DNA of 61,425 bases, from the IMG/VR virus record IMGVR_UViG_2049941000_000062; one strand, 5' to 3'. Shown here one piece after another: positions 14,846-61,331 of this stretch (position 1 is the stretch's first letter; each line of letters opens with the position of its first letter). The stretch comes from an uncultured virus (IMG/VR IMGVR_UViG_2049941000_000062). Its lineage: Duplodnaviria > Heunggongvirae > Uroviricota > Caudoviricetes. The position numbers and the translations under genes were made by a program. Below the pieces are notes generated by a model. The model did not search any database and was not told the DNA's origin. It worked only from the letters and a program-made list of their open reading frames with translations.

Positions 14846-14971
14846 TTCTCCGAATGTTTCAAAATAAGTTTCGTTGATATAGCGAATGATACGGTTGTCG
14901 TCGTAAGACTGGTCTTGAAGCTCGTCCTTAACGTCAGCTACAAGAGTTGATAAGTTATAATCAGCGTCCAT
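14846..14971 (-). CDS. Head-tail adaptor N-terminal fragment
   Basis: MDADYNLSTLV, as in 60311..60976. Confidence 0.7.
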
Positions 14972-14982
14972 TTATTACCAGA

Positions 14983-15011
14983 CGCATCGCCATTACTTAT
15001 ATTATAACACA
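14983..15011 (-). promoter_or_regulatory. Extended -10 promoter plus UGGCGAUGCG leader motif (adaptor operon)
   Basis: TGTGTTATAAT-8nt-TGGCGATGCG-11nt-ATG. Confidence 0.75.
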
Positions 15012-15066
15012 AAAAAGAGGAGCTGGTTAACCACGCCAGCTCCGAGGAGTATATTTGAGATATACA
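15010..15066 (-). ncRNA. Candidate ~55-nt sRNA
   Basis: Own TGTGGTATAAT promoter (15072..15082); terminator GGAGCTGG/CCAGCTCC + U-tract; no ORF. Confidence 0.5.
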
Positions 15067-15081
15067 TCTATATTATACCAC

Positions 15082-15276
15082 AAAAAACCACCATTTAAGG
15101 TGGCTTCTTCGTTATCAAACACTTCGTCTCGCAATAGGTGCATATCTGCACCACTTAGACCTTAAATCGCAGGCTGCTTGACAACTATGGTGTGGAGTCG
15201 AACCACTTAGACTCTATTTTGTCTAGCCCGATTAGTTGCTAGTATAGAGCTAACGCCCAGCCTTACGGCCAACCAT
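15082..15276 (-). ncRNA. Candidate ~190-nt ncRNA with T-arm-like GTGGTTCGACTCCAC
   Basis: Own promoter (15283..15293) and terminator; 3' part conserved at 61332..61425. Confidence 0.6.
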
Positions 15277-15292
15277 TACTTATATTATAACA

Positions 15293-15326
15293 CAAAAAAG
15301 GCTCTCAGGTTAGAGCCGAGAGCCTT
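15293..15326 (-). terminator. Intrinsic terminator of capsid operon
   Basis: AAGGCTCTC...GAGAGCCTT followed by U-tract on the minus strand. Confidence 0.75.
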
Positions 15327-15356
15327 AATTGTTCTAGGTGGTTGTCCTATCTATAA

Positions 15357-15872
15357 TTAGCCCGAAATGGTGCTTGAAGTGATAGAAGCAACAGCTTTCT
15401 TCTTGCCGTTAAGAACGAATGAATCGTAGATAAAGCGGCCTGTGAGGACTGAACCATCGACCAATTCAGAATCGGTAATGATACGAGTCTTCATAATTTG
15501 CTTTGCACCGAGAAGTGCATCTTTGTGCCACATAACACACTTAGTGTTTGCTGGGAAGTAAGATGCTGGGGTAACGATGATGTTGACACCGTCGAGTTCG
15601 CCTACGAAACCACGTGGGAGAAGTTTGTCGTTGTAAGCATTTGCGTTTACAGTTGAAACGATTTTGCTCTTGATAGCGACATACATTTGTGGGGTAACGA
15701 ATGCGAAGCGGTTAGCAACTGGAGCTTTAGCTTCATCGAGGTAAGCAACAGCTTTCATAAAGTCTTCGTAGACGTTAGAACCAGCAGCAACAGCTTGTGA
15801 AACTGCGGTAGCACCAGCAGCGCCAGCTGCGATACGGTTAGCGTCGATTTCTGGGATAACTTGTTCGTCCAT
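15357..15872 (-). CDS. Major capsid protein C-terminal fragment
   Basis: RGFVGELDGVNII..., YDSFVL, typical of the P22-coat/N4-gp56-like group; capsid position. Confidence 0.75.
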   Translation of the reverse strand: MDEQVIPEIDANRIAAGAAGATAVSQAVAAGSNVYEDFMKAVAYLDEAKAPVANRFAFVTPQMYVAIKSKIVSTVNANAYNDKLLPRGFVGELDGVNIIVTPASYFPANTKCVMWHKDALLGAKQIMKTRIITDSELVDGSVLTGRFIYDSFVLNGKKKAVASITSSTISG

Positions 15873-15894
15873 NNNNNNNNNNATGGTTAAACAG

Positions 15895-16544
15895 CTAAAG
15901 TCCGAGTCCACTCAAGAATGGGTCGTCTTCTGCTGGTTTGTCGAACTGCGTAGAATCGGTAGAACCTTGTTTGGTTGATTTTGCAGCTTGACGTGCAGAC
16001 ATCTCTTTGCGAACTTCATTACGGAGTTCGTCTGTAAGGATTTGGCGCTTTTCCTCTACTTCTGGTTTGGTATTGCCGCCTACGATAGAGAGTACGTCGT
16101 TAAGGGTCAAAAGACCATTTGCGACTTGGAGTCCTCTAACCAATGGCCTTCCGTCAACCATCATAGGTTTTCCGTCTTGCCCGATAATTGGTTGGTTCAT
16201 CCACTCAATCATTTTCTGCTCAGTTTCAGGAGTGATTTGCTTCTCGTTCTTCCATCTCTCGGTTTCCATTTGCACCTTATAAGCGTGAAACTCTTGCAAT
16301 GCCTGTTGGCCTGCATCGGTTGCCATCAGAGGTTGAGCCGAGTTAGCTAATTCTCTCTCCAACTTTGCTTTCTCTTGCGACTTTTGGTAAAAGCCCTTTT
16401 CAGCGTTCTGATACATATCAGCAAGTTTTCTGACATCTTCAGGCTTGCTTATATCTATTCCTTTTTTCGCCAAGAACTCATCTATTGCATCGCCAGTTTG
16501 TGCTTCTTCTTGATTTTCTTCAGTAGAAACCTCTGTCGATTCAC
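15895..16544 (-). CDS. Scaffold protein allele 2 (partial)
   Basis: Homologous to 16837..17625; ORF track falsely fuses it with MCP across a gap. Confidence 0.7.
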
Positions 16545-16554
16545 NNNNNNNNNN

Positions 16555-16785
16555 AAGTGTGTATGGGGTAACGACATCTTGAATTTCGTTGTTACCACCG
16601 AAACGGTCGCCAGTTTCTGTGCGATCGTAGTTATGAGTTGCAACAGTTGTTACTGTGTAAACGTTAACGGTCTTAACGCCATCGAAGTCATAGTTTTGGT
16701 TGACTGCACGATCGGTGTAAGAACCTTTTGCGAAAAGCTGGTCTAACTTGCCAGCATATTTTGAAGCAAGGTTAATTCCTGCCAT
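16555..16785 (-). CDS. Major capsid protein N-terminus, intronless allele
   Basis: MAGINLASKY...; SD AAGGAG. Confidence 0.8.
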
Positions 16786-16836
16786 AAAGGTTTGTACTCC
16801 TTATAGAATTGTTAAAGTTGTCTAGTAGTTAAACAG

Positions 16837-17625
16837 CTAGAAACCGAGTCCTTCTAGGAAAGAGTCGTTATCAGCTGGTTTGTCGAACTGCGTAGAATCG
16901 GTAGAACCTTGTTTGGTTGATTTAGCAGCTTGACGTGCAGACATTTCTTTACGAACTTCTGAACGGAGTTCTTCTGTAAGGTTTTGCTTCTTATCAGCTA
17001 ACTCTGTGTTGACGTTGCCGCCGACAATGTTATAGACCTCATCAAGAGAGATTTGGCCGTTAGCGTACATATAACCCTTAACGATAGGGTTGCCGTTTGC
17101 GTCCCTAGCTACTTGACCGTTAATAACGATAGGCTGACTAAACCAGTCCATCATTTTTTGTTCGGTTTCTGGAGATAGCTTCTTCTCTAGCTTCCATTTC
17201 TCTACGTCCATTTGGGTTTTCAATGCTCTGACTTCTGATAAAGCCTGCATATCTGGCGTACTCTGTGCTGGCTGAGCGTTTGCTAACTCACGTTCGAGCT
17301 TTGCCTTCTCTTGTGATTTCTGATAGAAACCTTTTTCAGCATTTTGATACATATCAGCAAGTTTTCTGACATCTTCAGGCTTGCTGGGATCTATCCCTTT
17401 TTTCGCCAAGAACTCGTCTATTGCATCGCCAGTTTGTGTTTCTTCTTGTTTTTCTTCTTCAGTAGAAACCTCTGTCGATTCGCTAGGTTGTTCTTCGCTA
17501 GCTGTTTGTTCTTCGTTGGTTACCTCTACTGCTGGGCTGCCACTATCTTCACTTTGCTCTGCTTCTTGATCGGCGAAGTCAGAGGGATCGAATAGGACTT
17601 CCTCATTTACAGTTTGTTCGTCCAT
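16837..17625 (-). CDS. Putative capsid scaffold protein
   Basis: Acidic N-terminus, coiled coil, lies between portal and MCP. Confidence 0.7.
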   Translation of the reverse strand: MDEQTVNEEVLFDPSDFADQEAEQSEDSGSPAVEVTNEEQTASEEQPSESTEVSTEEEKQEETQTGDAIDEFLAKKGIDPSKPEDVRKLADMYQNAEKGFYQKSQEKAKLERELANAQPAQSTPDMQALSEVRALKTQMDVEKWKLEKKLSPETEQKMMDWFSQPIVINGQVARDANGNPIVKGYMYANGQISLDEVYNIVGGNVNTELADKKQNLTEELRSEVRKEMSARQAAKSTKQGSTDSTQFDKPADNDSFLEGLGF

Positions 17626-17644
17626 AGAACTCTCCTTATTGTTA

Positions 17645-17775
17645 ATATCTGCATACGGAACCTCTCGATTCCGTCAGCCCAGCTTATCTCACATTTGGCG
17701 ATGCGTGCGGGCCTTCCCGCATTTAGTTATTATTAGCTTTTTAATAATTCAACTTGATAAGCTGGCTTGACGGTT
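17645..17775 (-). ncRNA. Structured RNA upstream of scaffold with unpaired CGCAUCGCCA (anti-leader)
   Basis: Stem 17671..17688/17756..17773 encloses two hairpins and single-stranded 17689..17705. Confidence 0.7.
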
Positions 17776-17801
17776 GCTATTAGAGGACTATTTCGGACGG
17801 A

Positions 17802-18074
17802 CTACTGCTCTCCTTTCTTCTTGTGCGCTTTAACTTCAACGTTGATACTGTCAATAAAGTCGATAACACTCTTGATACCGCTTGCACGGCCTACATTAGC
17901 TGCGATTTGCTCGTTAGGGCATTGGAGCTTGAGATATACGCTCTCGGCCGTTTCAAGGGCTTCTAAGCGCATATCTTTGATAAGCTTCAAGAATAACTCG
18001 CCACCTTCGGACTCGAAGAAGAAGCTATACATTTTCTTCTTATCTTCGTATGATAGTGGTTCGTTAAGCTCCAT
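17802..18074 (-). CDS. Small protein downstream of portal
   Basis: FFESEGGELFL; homolog fragment at 21812..21956. Confidence 0.7.
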   Translation of the reverse strand: MELNEPLSYEDKKKMYSFFFESEGGELFLKLIKDMRLEALETAESVYLKLQCPNEQIAANVGRASGIKSVIDFIDSINVEVKAHKKKGEQ

Positions 18075-19884
18075 AAGCCTCCTCTAAGCTTGGCTGTTCT
18101 TCTACCATAGGTTGTTCTGGCATAGTCATTTCAGTCTTTACTTCTTCGGTCTGAGCTGGGAGCATTTGTTGAGTTGGAGCGATAATCTCTTGTAGTTCTT
18201 CGTGGTTAATGTCAGGGAGAACCTTAGGTAAGATATACTCTTTAATCTTCGTGAGGTCGTTTGTAGGGTCTGCGATAAGCATTTGATAAGCTTGCATATA
18301 CATCTCACGTTTCTCTGCGTCTTCGAGCTTCTTCATAACGTCAAGCGTTACCATAGGTGTATATTCGCCGAGGAAGCGATCCATATCAACTTGCTCGAAC
18401 TTAACACCTGCGTCTGTGATATTGCGGACATAAAGGTCTTTTCCACCGTAAAGTTGCAAGAGCTTGAATACGATGTTAGCTTCTTGGAAGAAGAAACCGT
18501 TTGCGAGGTTCTGTGCTATATCTTCGATTCTAAGGTCGCTCTGACCGAGCATAGCCTTGATTTCGGTAGCAGTTGTAGTATCTGTAGCAGTAACACCCTT
18601 AGAGATCTGTGAAACAGATGAAACCTCACGGATCTCGTCTTTGATATTCATACGCTCGGTAAAGAGTGCTGTTGGAATTGCTGGAGGTGTGTTCCAGGTC
18701 ATAGCACCAGCAGGGAGAGGGTAGACTTTGCCCGGAGCTTGGCCGAGTTGGTCGATATAGGTAGCATACTTTGGATCTACGGTCTTTTCTGGATAAACGG
18801 CGATGAGTTGAGCTTCTACATATATCTCCGTGATAGTGTTTAGGAGTTCCTGCTGGTCTGCAATAATATCTACATCGCCTGTGCCATACGGGAGCGAGAT
18901 GTCTTTATATTCGCAGTCGTGTGCGAATGGGAATAGTCCGGCGCTTAATGGGTCGAACTCCTCAGGGAACTCGCCTATATCTTCGCCAGTAAGCTCAAAT
19001 TGGTTGATACGGTTGATTTCCCACTCTCTCTTGCGAATCTCGAACTTCGATTTCTCCATAGCATAGTGTGGGTTCTCTTTTTCTTCGATAATCTGTGAGC
19101 GGTTAGCGATAACGACTACTTTCTTACGAGTCCAGATTTCGATAAGCTCTACTGAGTTCTTATCTTTCTTAGCGATAGAGCCGATAACTTCTTCTTTCTT
19201 CGCCTTGTCTGTTTCGTTGTCGTCTGTCTGTGAACCGATTTTGTCTAGGTTCTTGTAGCGTGGAACATAACGCTCTTTTTCGAAGTCGTAGATTTTTTCT
19301 TCTTTAAGGTCTTTAAGGTTAGCGAAGATTCTACGGCCGACATAGTGCCAGCTCTCTGGATCACGAGCGTTAGGGTCGATAATCATATCACGGATAGGAA
19401 CTATCTCTTTGTGGACGTATCCACCGTTCTTATCTTGTATCCAAGTATAATAAGCACAGAAGTTGCCTGTGATAAGCCCTTGACGGCCCATATCCTTGTT
19501 TTTGCCTACCCAGTTGTCTTTACGAGCGAAGTCTTGATAGACCTCGTTTAAGACTGCCGTGTCTGCGTCCTGGTCTTTGTTGTTTGGGATATAGTTTACT
19601 TCTGGTGGACGGTTAAAAAGAGCCGCAACTTTGGTGTTAACCATAGAGTTAGTCATAGGCACAAAAGCCTCAACCTTCCCAGGGTGGTCTACCTTAGTTC
19701 TGCGGTTGTTGTATAATTTCCAGTTTCTTTCCCACCTTTGGTGGTAGTTTTCTTTAGCGTAGTCCCACGAGTTGTTGAACCACTTAAGATATTTCTGAAG
19801 TTTATTTGCTTCAGCCTGCGATTTCTTTGATGTATAATTTGCGTCTGCCAAGTTGTTGCCAAACGCATCGCCAACTACCACCAT
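18064..19884 (-). CDS. Portal protein allele 1 (probable start TTG at 19851)
   Basis: ~600 aa after TerL; TATEI motif of podovirus portals. Confidence 0.85.
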   Translation of the reverse strand: MVVVGDAFGNNLADANYTSKKSQAEANKLQKYLKWFNNSWDYAKENYHQRWERNWKLYNNRRTKVDHPGKVEAFVPMTNSMVNTKVAALFNRPPEVNYIPNNKDQDADTAVLNEVYQDFARKDNWVGKNKDMGRQGLITGNFCAYYTWIQDKNGGYVHKEIVPIRDMIIDPNARDPESWHYVGRRIFANLKDLKEEKIYDFEKERYVPRYKNLDKIGSQTDDNETDKAKKEEVIGSIAKKDKNSVELIEIWTRKKVVVIANRSQIIEEKENPHYAMEKSKFEIRKREWEINRINQFELTGEDIGEFPEEFDPLSAGLFPFAHDCEYKDISLPYGTGDVDIIADQQELLNTITEIYVEAQLIAVYPEKTVDPKYATYIDQLGQAPGKVYPLPAGAMTWNTPPAIPTALFTERMNIKDEIREVSSVSQISKGVTATDTTTATEIKAMLGQSDLRIEDIAQNLANGFFFQEANIVFKLLQLYGGKDLYVRNITDAGVKFEQVDMDRFLGEYTPMVTLDVMKKLEDAEKREMYMQAYQMLIADPTNDLTKIKEYILPKVLPDINHEELQEIIAPTQQMLPAQTEEVKTEMTMPEQPMVEEQPSLEEAYGA

Positions 19885-19898
19885 TATAACATATTTTC

Positions 19899-20968: not shown

Positions 20969-21440
20969 NNNNNNNNNNGTAGTCTTCAATATCCGTAGAG
21001 TTGATATGCTGAATAAACGTGCGACCGTCATCAAACGGCTTAGAGTCTGGTAAGTTATTCTCGCCGATAAGTGGCTCTACAATACGCTTTCTGTATGGAT
21101 CGTGAACGGATAAACGGTTAGCCGATAAGATAATCATNNNNNNNNNNTTCCTCGCTAGCTGTTTGTTCTTCGTTGGTTGCCTCTACTGCTGGGCTGCCAC
21201 TATCTTCACTTTGCTCGGCTTCTTGTACATCGAAGTCTGAGGGATCGAATAGGTCTTCCCCAGTTCCAGTTTGTTCGTCCATAGAACTCTCCTTATTGTT
21301 AATATCTGCTTGCGGTATCTCTCNNNNNNNNNNNNNNNNNNNNNNNNNNNNNNNNNNNNNNNNNNNNNNNNNNNNNNNNNNNNNNNNNNNNNNNNNNNNN
21401 NNNNNNNNNNNNNNNNNNNNNNNNNNNNNNNNNNNNNNNN

Positions 21441-21945: not shown

Positions 21946-23766
21946 TTAAGCTCCATAAGCCTCCTCTAAGCTAGGTTGTTCATCTACTGGTAATTGTTCT
22001 GGAATGGTAATATCTGTGCGCACTTCTTCTGCTACTGGCTCGATTGCTTGAGCTTGCTGACCTTCGGTAATTTCCTTAAGCTCCTCGTGGTTGATGTCAG
22101 GGAGTGCCTTAGGCAAGATATATTCCTTAATCTTTGCTAGGTTGTTTGTAGGGTCTGCAATAAGCATCTGGTATGCGCTCATATATGCTTCACGTTTCTC
22201 AGCGTCTTCGAGCTTCTTCATAACATCGAGCGTGACCATTGGAGTGTATTCACCTAAGAACTGCTCCATATTGACTTGGTCGAACTGGACACCTGATTCT
22301 GAGATGTTGCGGACATATAACTCATTGCCACCGTAAAGCTGCAAGAGTTTGAATACAATTTTTGCCTCTTGGAAGAAGAAGCCATTTGCAAGGTTTTGTG
22401 CAATATCTTCGATACGAAGGTCGCTCTGTCCGAGCATAGCCTTGATTTCGGTTGCGGTGGTGTTGTCTGTTGCAGTAACACCCTTAGAGATTTGAGAAAC
22501 TGAAGAAGCCTCACGAATCTCGTCCTTGATGTTCATACGCTCAGTAAAGAGAGCCGTAGGGATTGCTGGTGGTTCGTTCCAAGTGACCGCGCCTTGTGGT
22601 AATGGGTAAACCTTGCCTGGAGCTTGTCCGAGTTGGTCGATATAAGAAGCGTACTTAGGGTCAACGGTCTTCTCTGGATAAACAGCCATAAGTTGTGCTT
22701 CAACATAAATCTCTGTAATGGTGTTCAAAAGCTCTTGCTGGTCTGCGATAATATCGACATCACCTGTGCCATAAGGGAGCGAGATGTCTTTGTATTCACA
22801 ATCGTGTGCAAATGGAAGAAGTCCGGCAGATAATGGGTCAAACTCCTCTGTAAACTCGCCGATGTCCTCGCCAGTTTGTTCATATCTGTTGATACGCTCA
22901 AGTTCCCACTCTTTCTTGCGAATCTCGAACTTTGTCTTCTCCATTGCATAGTGTGGGTTCTCTTTTTCTTCGATGATAGCCTTACGGTTAGCGATAGTGA
23001 CTACTTCTTTGCGTGTCCAGATTTCGATGATTTCTACTGAGTCCTTATCCTTTGGCGCAATAGAGCCGATAACTTCCTCTTTCTTAGCCTTGTCTGACTC
23101 GTTGTCGTCGGTTTCAGTACCAACAGCATCAAGGTTCTTATAACGAGGAACATACTTGCCCTTCTCGAAGTCATAAGTCTTCTCATCCTTGAGGTCGTTG
23201 ATGTTAGCGAAGAATCTGCGTCCAACATAGTGCCAAGACTCTGGATCGCGTGCATTTGGGTCGATAATCATATCACGAACAGGAACAATCTCTTTGTGGA
23301 CATATCCACCTGCTTTGTCGTTCACCCAAGTGTAGTATGCACAGAAGTTGCCGGTGATAAGACCTTGACGGCCCATATCCTTATTCTTGCCTACCCAGTT
23401 GTCTTTGCGAGCGAAGTCTTGATAAACCTCATTAAGAATAGCTGTATCAGCTTCCTGACCATCATAATTTGGAATGTATCTAACTTCTGGCGCACGGTTA
23501 AAAAGAGCCGCAACTTTCGTATTCACCATAGAATTAGTCATAGGCACAAAAGCCTCGACCTGACCTGGGTGAGTACGCTTAGTCTTGCGGTTGTTGTAGA
23601 GTTTCCAGTTTCTTTCCCACCTTAAGTGGTAGTTTTCTTTAGCGTAATTCCAAGAGTTTTCAAAGTATTTAAGATATTTCTGAAGTTTTCCTCCAGATTG
23701 CGATTTCTTAGATGTAATATTTGCGTCTGCCAATGTTTTGCCAAACGCATCGCCAATTACTACCAT
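21946..23766 (-). CDS. Portal protein allele 2 (probable start TTG at 23733)
   Basis: Highly similar to 18064..19884. Confidence 0.85.
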   Translation of the reverse strand: MVVIGDAFGKTLADANITSKKSQSGGKLQKYLKYFENSWNYAKENYHLRWERNWKLYNNRKTKRTHPGQVEAFVPMTNSMVNTKVAALFNRAPEVRYIPNYDGQEADTAILNEVYQDFARKDNWVGKNKDMGRQGLITGNFCAYYTWVNDKAGGYVHKEIVPVRDMIIDPNARDPESWHYVGRRFFANINDLKDEKTYDFEKGKYVPRYKNLDAVGTETDDNESDKAKKEEVIGSIAPKDKDSVEIIEIWTRKEVVTIANRKAIIEEKENPHYAMEKTKFEIRKKEWELERINRYEQTGEDIGEFTEEFDPLSAGLLPFAHDCEYKDISLPYGTGDVDIIADQQELLNTITEIYVEAQLMAVYPEKTVDPKYASYIDQLGQAPGKVYPLPQGAVTWNEPPAIPTALFTERMNIKDEIREASSVSQISKGVTATDNTTATEIKAMLGQSDLRIEDIAQNLANGFFFQEAKIVFKLLQLYGGNELYVRNISESGVQFDQVNMEQFLGEYTPMVTLDVMKKLEDAEKREAYMSAYQMLIADPTNNLAKIKEYILPKALPDINHEELKEITEGQQAQAIEPVAEEVRTDITIPEQLPVDEQPSLEEAYGA

Positions 23767-23780
23767 TATAACACATTTCT

Positions 23781-30019: not shown

Positions 30020-30847
30020 TTCGTTTCCTCCAGTTCTCTCTTTCTCGTTTCATCTCTCTTACTTCTTCAGCGGCAGCNNNNNNNNNNNNNNNNNNNNNNN
30101 NNNNNNNNNNNNNNNNNNNNNNNNNNNNNNNNNNNNNNNNNNNNNNNNNNNNNNNNNNNNNNNNNNNNNNNNNNNNNNNNNNNNNNNNNNNNNNNNNNNN
30201 NNNNNNNNNNNNNNNNNNNNNNNNNNNNNNNNNNNNNNNNNNNNNNNNNNNNNNNNNNNNNNNNNNNNNNNNNNNNNNNNNNNNNNNNNNNNNNNNNNNN
30301 NNNNNNNNNAGCCAGGTGCGACATCAGATAACATCACCCAAAATGCTAGAATCACACTAGAAGCGAATGATAATGTGCCAATAATTCCACTCACAATTTC
30401 CCTCATTTCTTGCCTCCCTTTTTGAAAATCGGGCATTGCTCCTTATATTCCTTTTGATATTGCTCCCACCACAAATCTAGGAGCTTCCCCCTCATAGCGT
30501 CATATGGTTCGTTATATGGGTCGTCTTCAACCTTTTTATCAAAATACTCAAACTTTTCCCATATCTGTTCAGACAGACTTGGTAAAATTATTGGTTGAGT
30601 ATTTTCTTCTGGATAAGTTCCCATCATTTCTCCCCATCCTCTCTGATAGCTATACTTTTCTCCATAGCTTCGGCAAGTCTTTTTGTCCTACTAGCTAGAG
30701 GCTTCAACATATCTGCTGGTATATCTTCAAAAGATGATACCAAATCTTCGTCTGTTATTTTGTCTAGCTCTATAAGGTCATTCATTAGTCCCATTTTTTC
30801 TCCTTTCATTGCGCATTGGTGATGCGTTTTCCTTTACTCGTTATTTC

Positions 30848-36859: not shown

Positions 36860-36945
36860 CATCAAAAAACCACAGGGGGACACACGCTAGAAGCGAACCC
36901 TGTGGATAACTCATTATACCATACAAAAAATCTTTTGTAAAACTA

Positions 36946-42856: not shown

Positions 42857-42944
42857 GATAGAACACCTATCGCACCGCCAACTGTCTATATTATAACACA
42901 AAAGAATAGAGCCGACTATATGTGCCGGCTCTTTTGGTGGGTGG

Positions 42945-47682: not shown

Positions 47683-47773
47683 GATAGTCTCCTATCGCAT
47701 CGCCAATTATCTATATTATAACACAAAAGAATAGAGCCGACCATATAGCGCCGGCTCTATTGGTGGGGTGGGG

Positions 47774-50850: not shown

Positions 50851-50915
50851 CTTGCCCCCTGTAAAGACTTGCGATTATAAGACATATTATGTCCTACGCA
50901 TCGCCACTATACTTA

Positions 50916-50942
50916 CATTATATCACATTTTGTGATATAATG
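50916..50942. promoter_or_regulatory. Palindromic back-to-back extended -10 promoters
   Basis: CATTATATCACA-TTT-TGTGATATAATG; similar copy at 52290..52315. Confidence 0.7.
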
Positions 50943-51435: not shown

Positions 51436-54400
51436 TTAGGCTTCTTCGTAGCCTTGTTGGTATCTAGCGATAACGTTGCGAGCTTGTTGGAGCTTATATC
51501 TGCGCTGTTCTTCGCTATCCCACGGCTGTGGTACATATTGTTGCTTAATGCGTTCGTACTCTGCTGGAGTGACCGTAGCACCAGACATCATATAACCGAG
51601 CTGTGTTGCGAGCGAGTCTGCGGTTGATGAGTAAGCATTTCCACCAGCGTTCACGAGGTTGAGAACAGGGATGTCGCGTACTGTGTAGCCATAATCTGGG
51701 NNNNNNNNNNGGTTGAGGATTTCCTCTGCAGCGTTCGCCTTCTGTTGCTTTTCAGAGAGCTTGTTTTGCTTTTCTTCTGGGTTTTGTGCTTCATACATCT
51801 TGTATGCGGTCTGGTAAAGGTCTGCAAGCTGGTTGTAGGCCTTAATATCGCCTGCAGCGAGAGCAAGATTCATACCGTTTGCAATATCTGCGAGTTGTGC
51901 TTGGGCTTGTGCCTGTTGTGCGGTTTGCATTCCTGCGACACCAGTAGCACCACCGGCCATATTGTTATTAGCGATACCACCGAGCATTTGTTCTAGGGTC
52001 TGATAGTCTTGCGCCTTCCTTGCGTCCTGTACTGCATTATTAGCTTGGATATTGCCTGAAGTGCGGCCGATGTAGTTGGTAAGGATTCTGAGTGTTTCTG
52101 GAGAGATTGGTGTAGTATTGCCACCGATGTTATTTAGGGTTTCTCCAGCCTTTGAAAGAGCGTTTCCAGCGGTTCTTGACACAGAACCTATAATCTTTCC
52201 AGCTGGACGGGTGGCAACGGATAAAAGCTCGCCTGCACCTGAATCTTGTAAGAGCCTATTTACTNNNNNNNNNNTCGCCAATTATTTATATTATACCACA
52301 TTTTGTGATATAATGTAGGCAACTAAACAAAGGGACACATAATGTATATTGAATCTTGGATCGTGGTGGTAGTAGTTATCGTTATTGTGTGTTTGTTAGT
52401 GACAATAACCACTCAACACAATAAGTTCCAGTCAGCAGCTAAATTATTAGCCGAACAAGACAAAAAGGAGCTGCAACTTAGGCGACAGTTAGTNNNNNNN
52501 NNNNNNNNNNNNNNNNNNNNNNNNNNNNNNNNNNNNNNNNNNNNNNNNNNNNNNNNNNNNNNNNNNNNNNNNNNNNNNNNNNNNNNNNNNNNNNNNNNNN
52601 NNNNNNNNNNNNNNNNNNNNNNNNNNNNTTGTAGTGGTCTTGCTACCAGAGATTGCGTTTCTTCGATAGTCGTTCGTTCGCATCTCATAATCCATTTGGC
52701 GAGCGTCTTCATATTTTGCGGTCTTGCTGATAAACTCACCAATGTTCTTAGCCTCCATCATATCCTTGATAGCTGCATCGGTTGCGCCGAGGTTTTTCAA
52801 CCTCTCTGAGAGTTGAGCCTTAGTGTACTTATCGCCGAAGCCATCAACAGAGGTAGTAGCGAGGTCGCGGAGTTCACGTTTTACATCAAAGAGTGCATCT
52901 GCAAGAGCGCCTGCATCGGTTGCTAGATCGCCACCATTTACAGAGGTTGCCTTCTTGAGATACTTGTTAGCAATCTTGTTTACATCTCTTGATGCCTTGA
53001 GTAAATCTGCTGCGTTGTATCTGCCTGGAATATCGCCATTTTCGATAGTATCAAAGACGTTCTTGACTACATCATCATAAACCTTCTGGTATGTTCTAGT
53101 GTTGATTGCGTTTTCTGATGATGGTTTAGCGATTCTATCGACTAAGCCATTATCAACGATAGATGCGCCACTATTCTTTACGATGTCATCAACGAACTTG
53201 CTTTANNNNNNNNNNAAGAGCTGCTGCGTTTGCTTGTTGTTGAGTCTTCGAGAGTTTTACGTCTTTAGTAGTAGTCTGTGGGTTCTGAAGCTCATACATC
53301 TTGTAAGCTGTCTGGTAGAGGCTTGCGAGTTGGTTGTAGGCTTGAATATCGCCAGCTGCGAGAGCAAGATTCATACCGTTTGCAATATCTGCTAACTGTG
53401 CCTCAGCCTGGCTTGTTCTGTTGTTCTGTGCGATAGAGTTAGCTGTGATTANNNNNNNNNNGATTTTCTCTACGTTCTGTCTGGTCTGTTTTGTAGCGTT
53501 CTGGAGCTTTTCCCACATCTCGTCTGGGCCGTCACCTCTGTCGTAAGCTTCATCTACGCCACTATATCCGTATTCTCTTGCGATACGGTCTTGTTCTTCT
53601 TTGCCTTTTGTTGTAGCGTCCTTCATAGCTGCATTGTTTGCATCTTGAACGCCTTTTGTCATATAGGCAGCTGCAGTAGTAGCTAGAGTGTCTTTAGCAG
53701 ATTTCAAGTCCCTAGTTAAGTTTGATAAGAAGCCGCCGAGTCCACCGTTATTGTTATTATACTTACGATCTACGGACTCTTTTTGAGCTTCATAAAGTGC
53801 AAGTTGTTTGCGTTTGCGGTCTTCCTCGCCTGCAGCGAGAATATTGTTTAGCCAGTCTGCTGATTGTTCTTTGAATAGTGCCATATTTTGTTCGCCTCCT
53901 AGTAGATGTTTCCGAGGTATGTATAATCTCGACTACCGAGGTTAGCNNNNNNNNNNTGTCTGGAGTGTATCCGAGATTGCGGAGCTTGTTAACTGTATCG
54001 TTTTTAACAATATCTGCTGCGGTCTTCGAGTATAGTGAGTTGTAAAGGTCTGCGTTCTCGATACGTTCACCAGTCTTAGAGAGGTTGTCGCCGAGCTTCT
54101 GGATGACATTACGCTTGTTGATCTTGAGTTCGTTGCCTTGATAATCGAGAGGCTTTGTATAGTCTGGAAGGTCTAACTCTGAGCCAGTTGTGGTAGTTGG
54201 TTCGGTAGTAGTATTTGCACCCGCTCTACCTCTTACGCCTTGTGTAATTCTGTTAGCACCAGCCATAATGCCACCTTGTGCTGCACCTGCGCCAGCTCCC
54301 TGAAGTGCGCCCTGAAGTGCTGCCTGTGCGATGTTCCCACCGCCAAGAGCGGCTGAAGTACCAGCGCCTGCTGCGCCACCTGCAGCGCCAGCAATTGCAC

Positions 54401-55842: not shown

Positions 55843-55997
55843 GGTATTCCTACCGCATCGCCATTACCTTTATTATAACACATTTTAGAACGGAGATATA
55901 GCAAGATCTATAATAGCATTTGCAGTAAAGGCCGTCGTAGTGGCCTGATAACCGTTAAGCGTGCAAGCTAGGGTATATCTTGTCGGAGAGGACTGAT

Positions 55998-56749: not shown

Positions 56750-56791
56750 GGTATTCCTACCGCATCGCCATTACTTATATTATACCACATT

Positions 56792-60976: not shown

Positions 60977-61331
60977 TTATTACCAGACGCATCGCCATTA
61001 NNNNNNNNNNNNNNNNNNNNNNNNNNNNNNNNNNNNNNNNNNNNNNNNNNNNNNNNNNNNNNNNNNNNNNNNNNNNNNNNNNNNNNNNNNNNNNNNNNNN
61101 NNNNNNNNNNNNNNNNNNNNNNNNNNNNNNNNNNNNNNNNNNNNNNNNNNNNNNNNNNNNNNNNNNNNNNNNNNNNNNNNNNNNNNNNNNNNNNNNNNNN
61201 NNNNNNNNNNNNNNNNNNNNNNNNNNNNNNNNNNNNNNNNNNNNNNNNNNNNNNNNNNNNNNNNNNNNNNNNNNNNNNNNNNNNNNNNNNNNNNNNNNNN
61301 NNNNNNTATTTTATCCATTTATATTATACCA

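Follow-up and report, generated by a model that had tools for sequence, protein, structure and literature searches.

The late operons of the phage family represented by the uncultured caudovirus IMGVR_UViG_2049941000_000062 start with a short leader motif, TGGCGATGCG. Its complement CGCAUCGCCA, which we call the anti-leader, lies in the 5' untranslated region (UTR) in front of the scaffold and capsid genes, where it is embedded in a conserved RNA structure and changes together with the leaders in divergent relatives. The analysis concerns the whole 61,425-base stretch of this record, referred to below as the window. Judging from sequence comparison and structure prediction, we give a probability of roughly 0.55 to the reading that the 5' leaders of the late mRNAs pair as RNA with the anti-leader and with the loop of P4, the small hairpin that contains it.

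Exact copies of TGGCGATGCG occupy eight sites on the minus strand of the window (14983, 19864, 23746, 47696, 50897, 55854, 56761 and 60988), and the motif count on both strands bears out the preliminary description, which had reported a single exact opposite-orientation copy at 17696-17705 of the plus strand. When up to one mismatch is allowed, 16 matches stand against 1.80 expected, a number that 0 of 100 shuffles reached; a leader variant, TGGCGGTGCG, is present at 42871 on the minus strand. The promoter element TGNTATAAT is likewise enriched (16 occurrences, 2.66 expected), and the full motif follows 8 of these 16 promoters, with an N-cut copy behind a ninth. As TGNTATAAT promoters without the motif exist at 15284, 15072, 36913, 50933+ and 52306+, the motif is an addition to one promoter class. 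The late promoters conform to the extended −10 consensus and lack a conserved −35 element, and each late operon has its own promoter and its own terminator.

The described succession of TGnTATAAT and leader motif is real by this enrichment as well as by its spacing, which we followed through 66 distinct leader contexts pooled from the window, three complete genomes and relatives. The distance from the −10 element to the motif start is 7-12 nucleotides (nt), with 8 nt in 41 of the 66, and from this spacing we infer that the motif forms the 5' end of the transcript; the usual distance between a −10 element and the transcription start would put it at about +1 to +5. All 54 contexts with an open reading frame (ORF) of at least 60 codons place the start codon (31 ATG, 14 GTG, 9 TTG) 10-15 nt past the motif. 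By a crude test, namely the presence of any of four Shine-Dalgarno (SD)-like 4-mers at the usual place, only 9 of these 54 first cistrons carry such a signal, compared with 52 of 71 other ORFs of at least 100 amino acids (aa) in the three genomes. The stretch after the motif forms hairpins that are stabler than those of shuffled sequences (mean z = -1.94; z < -2 in 35/66); their stems vary among operons and relatives, as in CGGUA/UACCG, CGAUAG/CUAUCG and CGUAG/CUACG, and their loops are not conserved between operons. The GUG of the 268-aa protein (55854..55880), for instance, lies at the foot of a hairpin with a GNRA loop. Two other explanations of the motif were tried and rejected: a leaderless upstream ORF (the motif is preceded by A or T, in one case by G, giving NTG GCG AUG) is inconsistent in frame, in length (3 to >200 codons) and in stop position relative to the main start, and a host signal does not fit the copies in the host contigs of a metagenome-assembled genome (MAG) that includes a related phage contig, as these copies have no promoter context.

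The window is an assembly scaffold in which about fifty pieces are strung together across 10-N gaps and some longer runs of N, and its direct repeats of 72-96 % identity indicate at least two interleaved strain variants of one phage. This is the origin of the two alleles that the preliminary description had given to each late unit; the copies themselves are present, including the partial one on the lysis side near 52275, which a 10-N gap cuts. The label of the adaptor unit was confirmed through its homologue in the complete genome G002 (SU10_adaptor, Pfam), whereas the name 'ejection' for the unit starting with the 268-aa protein was not confirmed by any family match. Gene order in the window is partly scrambled: the adaptor start at 14962 enters capsid-like sequence past a gap.

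The scaffold 5'UTR comprises window positions 17626-17801 on the minus strand, that is, 176 nt between a 90-aa ORF behind the portal gene and the scaffold start; the second UTR allele of the window is masked by N at 21324-21440. On the late-sense strand its minimum free energy (MFE) is -52.1 kcal/mol (z = -4.0 against shuffles), and the predicted fold is a four-way junction of a closing stem (P1), an AU hairpin (P2), a GC hairpin (P3) and the small hairpin P4, with a further hairpin, P5, on the 3' side (Table 1). We derived the consensus structure with alifold from eight distinct sequences of clade 1 and assessed the pairing of P3 and P4 in 20 sequences from all clades. Clade 1 and clade 2 are defined by portal proteins 76-95 % and about 60 % identical to that of the window, respectively, and clade 3 consists of the nine loci L078-L086; more distant relatives have portals 33-42 % identical to the search query.

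The closing stem, the UGCGGG/CCCGCA hairpin (P3) and the AU hairpin of the preliminary description are all present and predicted, and the hairpin proposed to compete with the closing stem (P5) turned out to be real as well, based on a three-way covariation: column 169 covaries with column 54 in P1 and with column 188 in P5, and column 171 does so with columns 52 (P1) and 186 (P5). More than 99 % of cells are paired in each of the two structures, and 0 of 500 shuffles reached the covariation score. A P5 pair (175/182) can form a U-G wobble on the late-sense strand only, and the layout of alternative helices was recognised by eye in clade 3, too. On the strength of the alignment, the UTR is bistable, the outer end of P1 and P5 being two mutually exclusive helices that each show covariation. 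A conserved CUCU stretch can moreover pair with the scaffold SD in 8/8 sequences (one pair being UA in 6 and UG in 2), which is weak support because no compensatory change is seen. According to the model, P1/P5 competition and CUCU-SD pairing probably tune scaffold translation.

The anti-leader had been described as single-stranded inside the multibranch loop. Only the CGCCAA part is looped out; the anti-leader is half stem and half loop because its CGCAU pairs with AUGUG in P4. Hairpin P4 is predicted in all clades, with 87.6 % of cells paired over the 20 sequences, one compensatory exchange from A-U to G-C (L085) and G-U/G-C alternation, and its loop is the likely nucleation site for the 5' UGGCG of the leader in our model. 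P3, directly 5' of the anti-leader, has 100 % of cells paired and both-side changes in 5/5 pairs, and its loop is AAGG in 20 of the 23 listed sequences and AANGG in 3. This SD-like AAGG (17712-17715, minus strand) persists among sequences whose stems are wholly changed, and it is also kept in L111 and L126, in which the anti-leader is different. The idea that the loop supplies an SD in trans was set aside on geometric grounds, by inference only. Rfam gives no family at gathering score anywhere in the window, and its three matches at E ≤ 1 within 14950-17850 all fall at 15012-15193, outside the UTR, and far below the gathering scores; the UTR thus matches no aptamer class described there.

The decisive test lies in the relatives, and the complement is kept in all of them that cover the UTR; leaders without an antisense copy, which by the preliminary description would have refuted the idea, were not seen among these. 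One exact antisense copy sits at the same place in 11/11 loci of clade 1. Clade 2 has an exact CGCATCGCCA in 12/12 UTR-covering loci (three more stop short of the UTR), despite differing sequences of P1, P2, P3 and P5. In clade 3, in which L086 stops at the portal gene, the anti-leader is exact in five of the eight loci covering the UTR, and the other three carry co-varying variants. Both leaders of L085 read AGGCGGCGCG and face the anti-leader CGCGCCG(A)CCU, a combination of three compensatory changes with a single additional base; P4 follows with an altered 3' strand. The three leaders of L082 (UGGCGGUGCG) go with the anti-leader CGCACUGCCA, and the two of L084 (also UGGCGGUGCG) with CGCACCACCA, in which one change is compensatory and one position is left as an A-C mismatch.

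More distant relatives use other words in the same arrangement. In L088 and L090, three promoters are followed by CGGGCGAGG, and the scaffold UTR contains CUCGCCCG; L111 carries GGGUAGGUG after three promoters and CACCUACCC immediately 3' of a P3 hairpin with its AAGG loop, and L126 shares this GGGUAGGUG/CACCUACCC pair. The leaders CGGGCAGGG and CGGGCAGGU of L096 match the anti-leader CCCUGCCCG, and leader UGGGCGGU of L097 matches ACCGCCCA. A 13-nt match in L127 counts as weak because its sense copy is not promoter-proximal. By arithmetic, a given 9-mer occurs by chance about 0.0015 times per 400 nt of one strand. A family-wide scan for complementary stretches of 8 nt or more shared by the 5' region of portal and the region behind this gene had too high a background to be useful (49/68 true and 218/401 mismatched pairs), and scanning more widely with 8-mers gave just as much noise; the distant pairs (L088/L090, L111/L126, L096 and L097) were then checked individually by eye. 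The co-variation suggested earlier as a check is observed in L085, L082, L084 and the distant pairs.

Comparing leaders with the anti-leader of their own genome, we found 24 of 51 contexts to be perfectly complementary, 18 to differ by G-U pairs only and 9 to contain a mismatch; this count left out L085 and loci without their own UTR. Leader variation is common at two positions, 6 and 9, which lie opposite U and G of the anti-leader, where wobble pairs are possible, so that the common variants are G-U compatible, as had been pointed out for the one at 42871. Additional anti-leaders occur between helix strands in other 5'UTRs (L054:6284, L055:6094, L056:113 and L127:5950), and L088:7436 is a further complementary copy. 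Separately, we note CGCATCACCAATGCG at 30812-30826 (minus strand) of the window, which immediately precedes an SD and ATG within a 5'UTR, forms a P4-like hairpin and is one change away from the anti-leader; it resembles the second anti-leaders of clade 2 at L054:6284, L055:6094 and L056:113.

Several results speak against pairing between leader and anti-leader. The clade-2 leaders of the 268-aa protein (UGGCGACGCG, UGGCGCUGCG or UGGCGUAUGCG) and the L045 leader CGGCGAUGCG misfit their anti-leaders, and L079 and L080 have leaders of the sequence AGGCGAUGCG next to an unchanged anti-leader. Leader contexts are related by descent, so that the counts do not represent independent events, and co-variation of the sites is equally expected from a co-evolving DNA-binding protein. 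The leaders are partly engaged in local pairs, with predicted opening costs of 3.6-12.3 kcal/mol; pairing of the last motif bases beside the start codon, found in 28/54 contexts, does not exceed the fraction of 0.50 obtained with shuffled spacers. Forcing the anti-leader to be unpaired left the predicted accessibility of SD and AUG unchanged in 18 UTRs, and a link between leader binding and the P1/P5 switch is therefore without computational support.

The predicted energetics, opening costs included, favour pairing. In the homologous UTR of G002, the predicted cost of opening is 0.02 kcal/mol if the loop CGCCA alone is freed and 4.3 kcal/mol if the whole 10-mer is, and the duplex of leader and anti-leader yields -16 to -18 kcal/mol, leaving a predicted net gain of -1.4 to -10.1 kcal/mol for the five G002 leaders. 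As in base-pairing RNAs, complementarity is kept by compensatory change, and the seed is predicted to be accessible in a loop. In our model, which leaves room for activation as well as repression, the P4 loop CGCCA would contact the 5'-proximal UGGCG of a late transcript. Pairing would then grow to 10 bp, opening P4 as well as the lowest pairs of the leader's own hairpin, which has the start codon of the SD-poor first cistron at its 3' foot. An effect on first-cistron initiation would be the most direct consequence, because the pairing would open the hairpin carrying this start codon. The contact would thus restructure the start region of each operon's first gene (portal, adaptor, 268-aa protein, tail-fibre unit and lysis unit) and would couple its output to the amount of scaffold-capsid mRNA. 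The P1/P5 bistability beside the SD suggests that scaffold translation itself is switched.

In the portal operon, pairing within a single molecule is possible, too, as leader and anti-leader share one predicted primary transcript: simple scans found no promoter-like or terminator-like site on the minus strand between 19864 and the terminator at 15326-15298. Lysis-side leaders are embedded in long local hairpins with a partial anti-leader inside (G004, -19.5 kcal/mol), an arrangement that would suit a role in timing. The hub or switch envisaged in the preliminary description accordingly gains from the co-variation and the competing hairpin; it loses in that the anti-leader is not free in a multiloop and that a DNA operator predicts co-variation as well. 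More tentatively, and with odds that we put below even, leader and anti-leader may constitute a lineage-private code in which the scaffold-capsid UTR acts as a hub. It would pair with the 5' ends of all late operons, in which no normal ribosome-binding site precedes the first gene, scale their translation or stability with the capsid mRNA, and reach further 5'UTRs that carry anti-leaders.

Conserved complementary words can reflect either pairing of the strands or recognition of one duplex in both orientations. Because the phage is temperate and its late promoters follow the consensus, an asymmetric DNA operator is a rival to be taken seriously, which we rate as unlikely. The 10-bp motif would be the site of a phage repressor or late regulator just past the extended −10 promoters, and the inverted copy in the scaffold UTR one more such site. 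The phage carries an integrase and an ERF recombinase, and extended −10 late promoters would need silencing in a temperate phage; these promoters have no conserved −35 element, promoters without the motif exist alongside, and a protein of changed specificity would make all sites within a genome co-vary. The sites are non-palindromic and all face the same way with respect to transcription, which is also true of the Cluster A stoperators as presented in the accessible part of PMC9283540; yet reversed stoperators are inactive according to the same text, and the reversed copy here is the best conserved of all. It is fixed in 20 scaffold-UTR contexts, whereas the direct copies vary mainly at the two positions facing U and G, and it is always framed by covarying RNA helices, with the 3' strand of P4 changing along with it. 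The extra base of the inverted copy in L085 would be tolerated as a bulge by an RNA helix and poorly by a DNA site, and an operator needs no fixed spacing of 10-15 nt to an SD-poor start codon. Among 30 G002 proteins scanned against Pfam, no repressor family was listed; many small ORFs had no match, and the search was not directed at repressors. Taken together, the DNA-operator reading is weakened by this RNA-type evidence.

A purely intramolecular switch, likewise improbable in our view, would have the anti-leader pair only with leader-like sequences of its own transcript and thereby set scaffold and capsid translation, the other operons sharing the motif for another reason, such as a protein or ribosomal contact. 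Candidate partners are the portal leader 2.2 kb upstream on the same predicted transcription unit, a leader-like copy about 275 nt downstream within the scaffold ORF and, in some lineages, a local mimic. Such a mimic exists in the UTRs of L088, L097 and L096, which hold a local leader copy 25-30 nt past the anti-leader, just before the SD, and the UTR is bistable beside its SD. The in-ORF copy (ACT GGC GAT GCR, peptide TGDA) retains an invariant GGC GAT in 23/23 distinct contexts of three clades while the neighbouring codons vary synonymously, but it does not co-vary with the changed anti-leader in L082 or L085. What changes with the anti-leader is every leader and not the portal leader alone (L085 2/2, L088 3/3, L111 3/3), and anti-leaders are present in other 5'UTRs, too. 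Far less probable still is that the element works from the opposite strand, on which the motif, a GC hairpin and a T-rich tract follow one another as they do in the leaders; it would then serve as a terminator or form the 3' terminus of a short antisense RNA. The plus-strand hairpin at 17705-17722 does score as terminator-like, and all three clades have an A-run before P3 on the late-sense strand. Upstream on the plus strand, however, nothing promoter-like is present, and the aligned −10 position is without its key A; a terminator gives no reason for the conserved AAGG loop of the sense strand, the wobble pairs fit the late-sense strand, and L088, L097 and L096 have an anti-leader without the hairpin. 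Finally, a pairing partner in the host 16S rRNA, raised in the preliminary description, was not found: five 16S genes from relatives of the MAG holding a related contig, with the usual CCUCC at their 3' ends, contain no match to CGCAUCGCCA at up to two mismatches, a weak negative because the host is not established.

Table 1. Coordinates of the leader sites and of the scaffold 5'UTR elements in the window.
Feature	Position	Strand	Remarks
Anti-leader CGCAUCGCCA	17696..17705	-	complementary to late leader
Hairpin P4	17690..17705	-	CGCAU (17701-17705)/AUGUG (17690-17694), loop CGCCAA (17695-17700); MFE and alifold
Hairpin P3	17706..17721	-	UGCGGG-AAGG-CCCGCA, immediately 5' of anti-leader
Hairpin P2	17727..17751	-	AU-rich; length and sequence variable among relatives
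P1 3' strand GAUAAGCUGGGCUGACGG	17671..17688	-	final four bases ACGG common to P5; covariation columns 67/156, 54/169, 52/171
P1 5' strand CCGUCAAGCCAGCUUAUC	17756..17773	-	100 % of cells paired; 3 pairs with both-side changes
Hairpin P5 ACGGAAUC-GAGA-GGUUCCGU	17655..17674	-	mutually exclusive with outer P1 end
Conserved CUCU	17782..17785	-	alifold columns 39-42 pair with 216-219 (scaffold SD)
Scaffold SD AAGGAGAG	17630-17637	-	start codon 17623-17625
Portal operon, allele 1	19864..19891	-	TGTTATAAT promoter and leader UGGCGAUGCG
Portal operon, allele 2	23746..23773	-	promoter and leader
Adaptor operon	14983..15009	-	promoter and leader; ATG 11 nt past motif
Adaptor operon, allele 2	60988..60997	-	leader; promoter masked by N 61001-61306
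268-aa-protein operon	55854..55880	-	promoter and leader; GUG 11 nt past motif
268-aa-protein operon, allele 2	56761..56787	-	promoter and leader
Tail-fibre operon	47696..47723	-	promoter and leader
Tail-fibre operon, allele 2	42871..42898	-	leader variant UGGCGGUGCG; G-U pair with anti-leader
Lysis-side operon	50897..50925	-	promoter and leader; leader within longer local hairpin
Lysis-side operon, allele 2	52275..52298	-	promoter and leader interrupted by 10-N gap
Leader-like copy UGGCGAUGCA in scaffold ORF	17422..17431	-	ACU GGC GAU GCA; possible intramolecular partner
In-ORF leader-like copy, second allele	16486-16495	-	

Some further promoters of the window deserve a brief description. 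The lysis-side promoter (50917-50941) stands back-to-back and palindromic with a plus-strand promoter at 50933-50941, which lacks the motif and drives an SD-bearing gene on the opposite strand. Extended −10 promoters at 15072-15080 and 36913-36921 (both minus strand) are followed by intrinsic terminators about 25-60 nt on and thus define tiny transcription units; clade-3 relatives have several such promoter-terminator units between the capsid and adaptor genes. At 15090-15292 (minus strand), a non-coding unit of about 190 nt runs from a TGTTATAAT promoter to a clear terminator. This unit contains a T-arm-like GGTTCGACTCCAC followed by ACCAT, which is able to pair with a 5' ATGGT in the manner of a transfer RNA (tRNA) or transfer-messenger RNA; ARAGORN and Rfam returned nothing for it, and a similar start follows a promoter in L084 at 8100.

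With respect to the phage itself, PHROGs matches in the window include a large terminase, portal, major head protein, tail proteins and an HNH endonuclease; no tRNA gene was detected in the window by ARAGORN, no GenBank phage matched it in blastn, and a look-up of sequencing runs gave no RNA run containing the stretch. A protein search with the portal retrieved 1055 relatives at E ≤ 1e-10. Complete relatives measure 28-31 kb, one of them with direct terminal repeats, have nearly all genes on one strand and encode an integrase, an ERF recombinase, a Dp-1 type holin, glycosyltransferases and an SU10-type adaptor. A related 18-kb contig (L012) was binned together with a second phage contig in a Candidatus Saccharibacteria MAG, which is only a hint at Saccharibacteria as the host; given that one relative sits in such a bin, the host group may be poorly studied. 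In one complete relative a tRNA-Pro(CGG) gene adjoins the integrase (L018:2710-2792), and about 47 nt of its 5' half are 91-96 % identical to tRNA genes in many relatives of the MAG, a comparison made without an outgroup control.

Base-pairing control at 5' leaders is well known from the anti-antisense mechanism of DsrA and RprA on rpoS, from the pairing of FasX with the 5' end of ska and from the mRNA-mRNA pairing of hly and prsA2 in Listeria. In the system proposed here, as in DsrA, FasX and hly-prsA2, a displayed seed would pair with a 5' leader and alter an initiation hairpin or protect the 5' end. It would differ from them in that the regulator is the 5'UTR of structural genes, the targets are all late operons and the pair is lineage-specific. 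The lambda-type nut site, a boxA followed by a boxB hairpin near the operon start whose loop is recognised by an N-like protein, shares the order of a conserved linear box and a hairpin near the operon start. Unlike in nut, the loops and stems after the leader differ between operons, each of which has its own promoter and terminator, and no N-like protein was identified in our analysis.

The closest published pattern that we found is the SAS/ESAS of Cluster K mycobacteriophages, which the accessible part of PMC3203893 describes as a short asymmetric repeat just upstream of the start codons of a gene subset, almost always in one orientation, with one opposite-orientation SAS copy in each of four genomes. 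The same part of that paper calls the function of SAS unknown and its partner, RNA or protein, undetermined. Asymmetry, adjacency to start codons and a lone opposite-orientation copy are common to both systems. SAS, as characterised in the accessible text of PMC3203893, is 13 bp long, including the SD core AGGAG, is separated from the start codon by 3-7 bp and belongs to the non-structural half of the genome. The present motif, in contrast, is placed 10-15 nt from the start, is without AGGAG and marks the first genes of late operons directly after the promoter, and its opposite copy resides within a covarying RNA structure. Co-variation of sense and antisense copies is not among the SAS results given in that part of PMC3203893. 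By analogy, the same logic might explain the lone opposite-orientation SAS copy of the Cluster K phages.

Stoperators of Cluster A (L5 gp71 type) are DNA sites bound by a monomeric repressor that lose function when reversed, as far as the available portion of PMC9283540 describes them. They resemble the leader motif in their many asymmetric copies oriented with transcription at promoters of a temperate phage, and they also lie between genes (PMC9283540, same portion). All functional stoperators are oriented with transcription, whereas one reversed copy per genome is the most conserved here and is embedded in RNA helices. Full-text literature searches uncovered no precedent for pairing between late leaders and a scaffold UTR; one may exist elsewhere. 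New here would be the hub in a structural-gene UTR, its reach over the whole late regulon and the lineage-specific words.

If the proposed pairing holds true, these phages would possess a post-transcriptional layer of late control in which the mRNA of the structural genes regulates, or is regulated by, all other late operons, with the specificity held in a short sequence pair that drifts and is repaired between lineages. Naturally swapped pairs exist in the UGGCGAUGCG, AGGCGGCGCG, CGGGCGAGG and GGGUAGGUG systems, which would make the circuit easy to test. It would bear on the stoichiometry of small phages, in which portal, adaptor, fibre and lysis proteins have to be balanced against hundreds of capsid and scaffold copies, and it might offer a possible mechanism for repeats without known function such as SAS.

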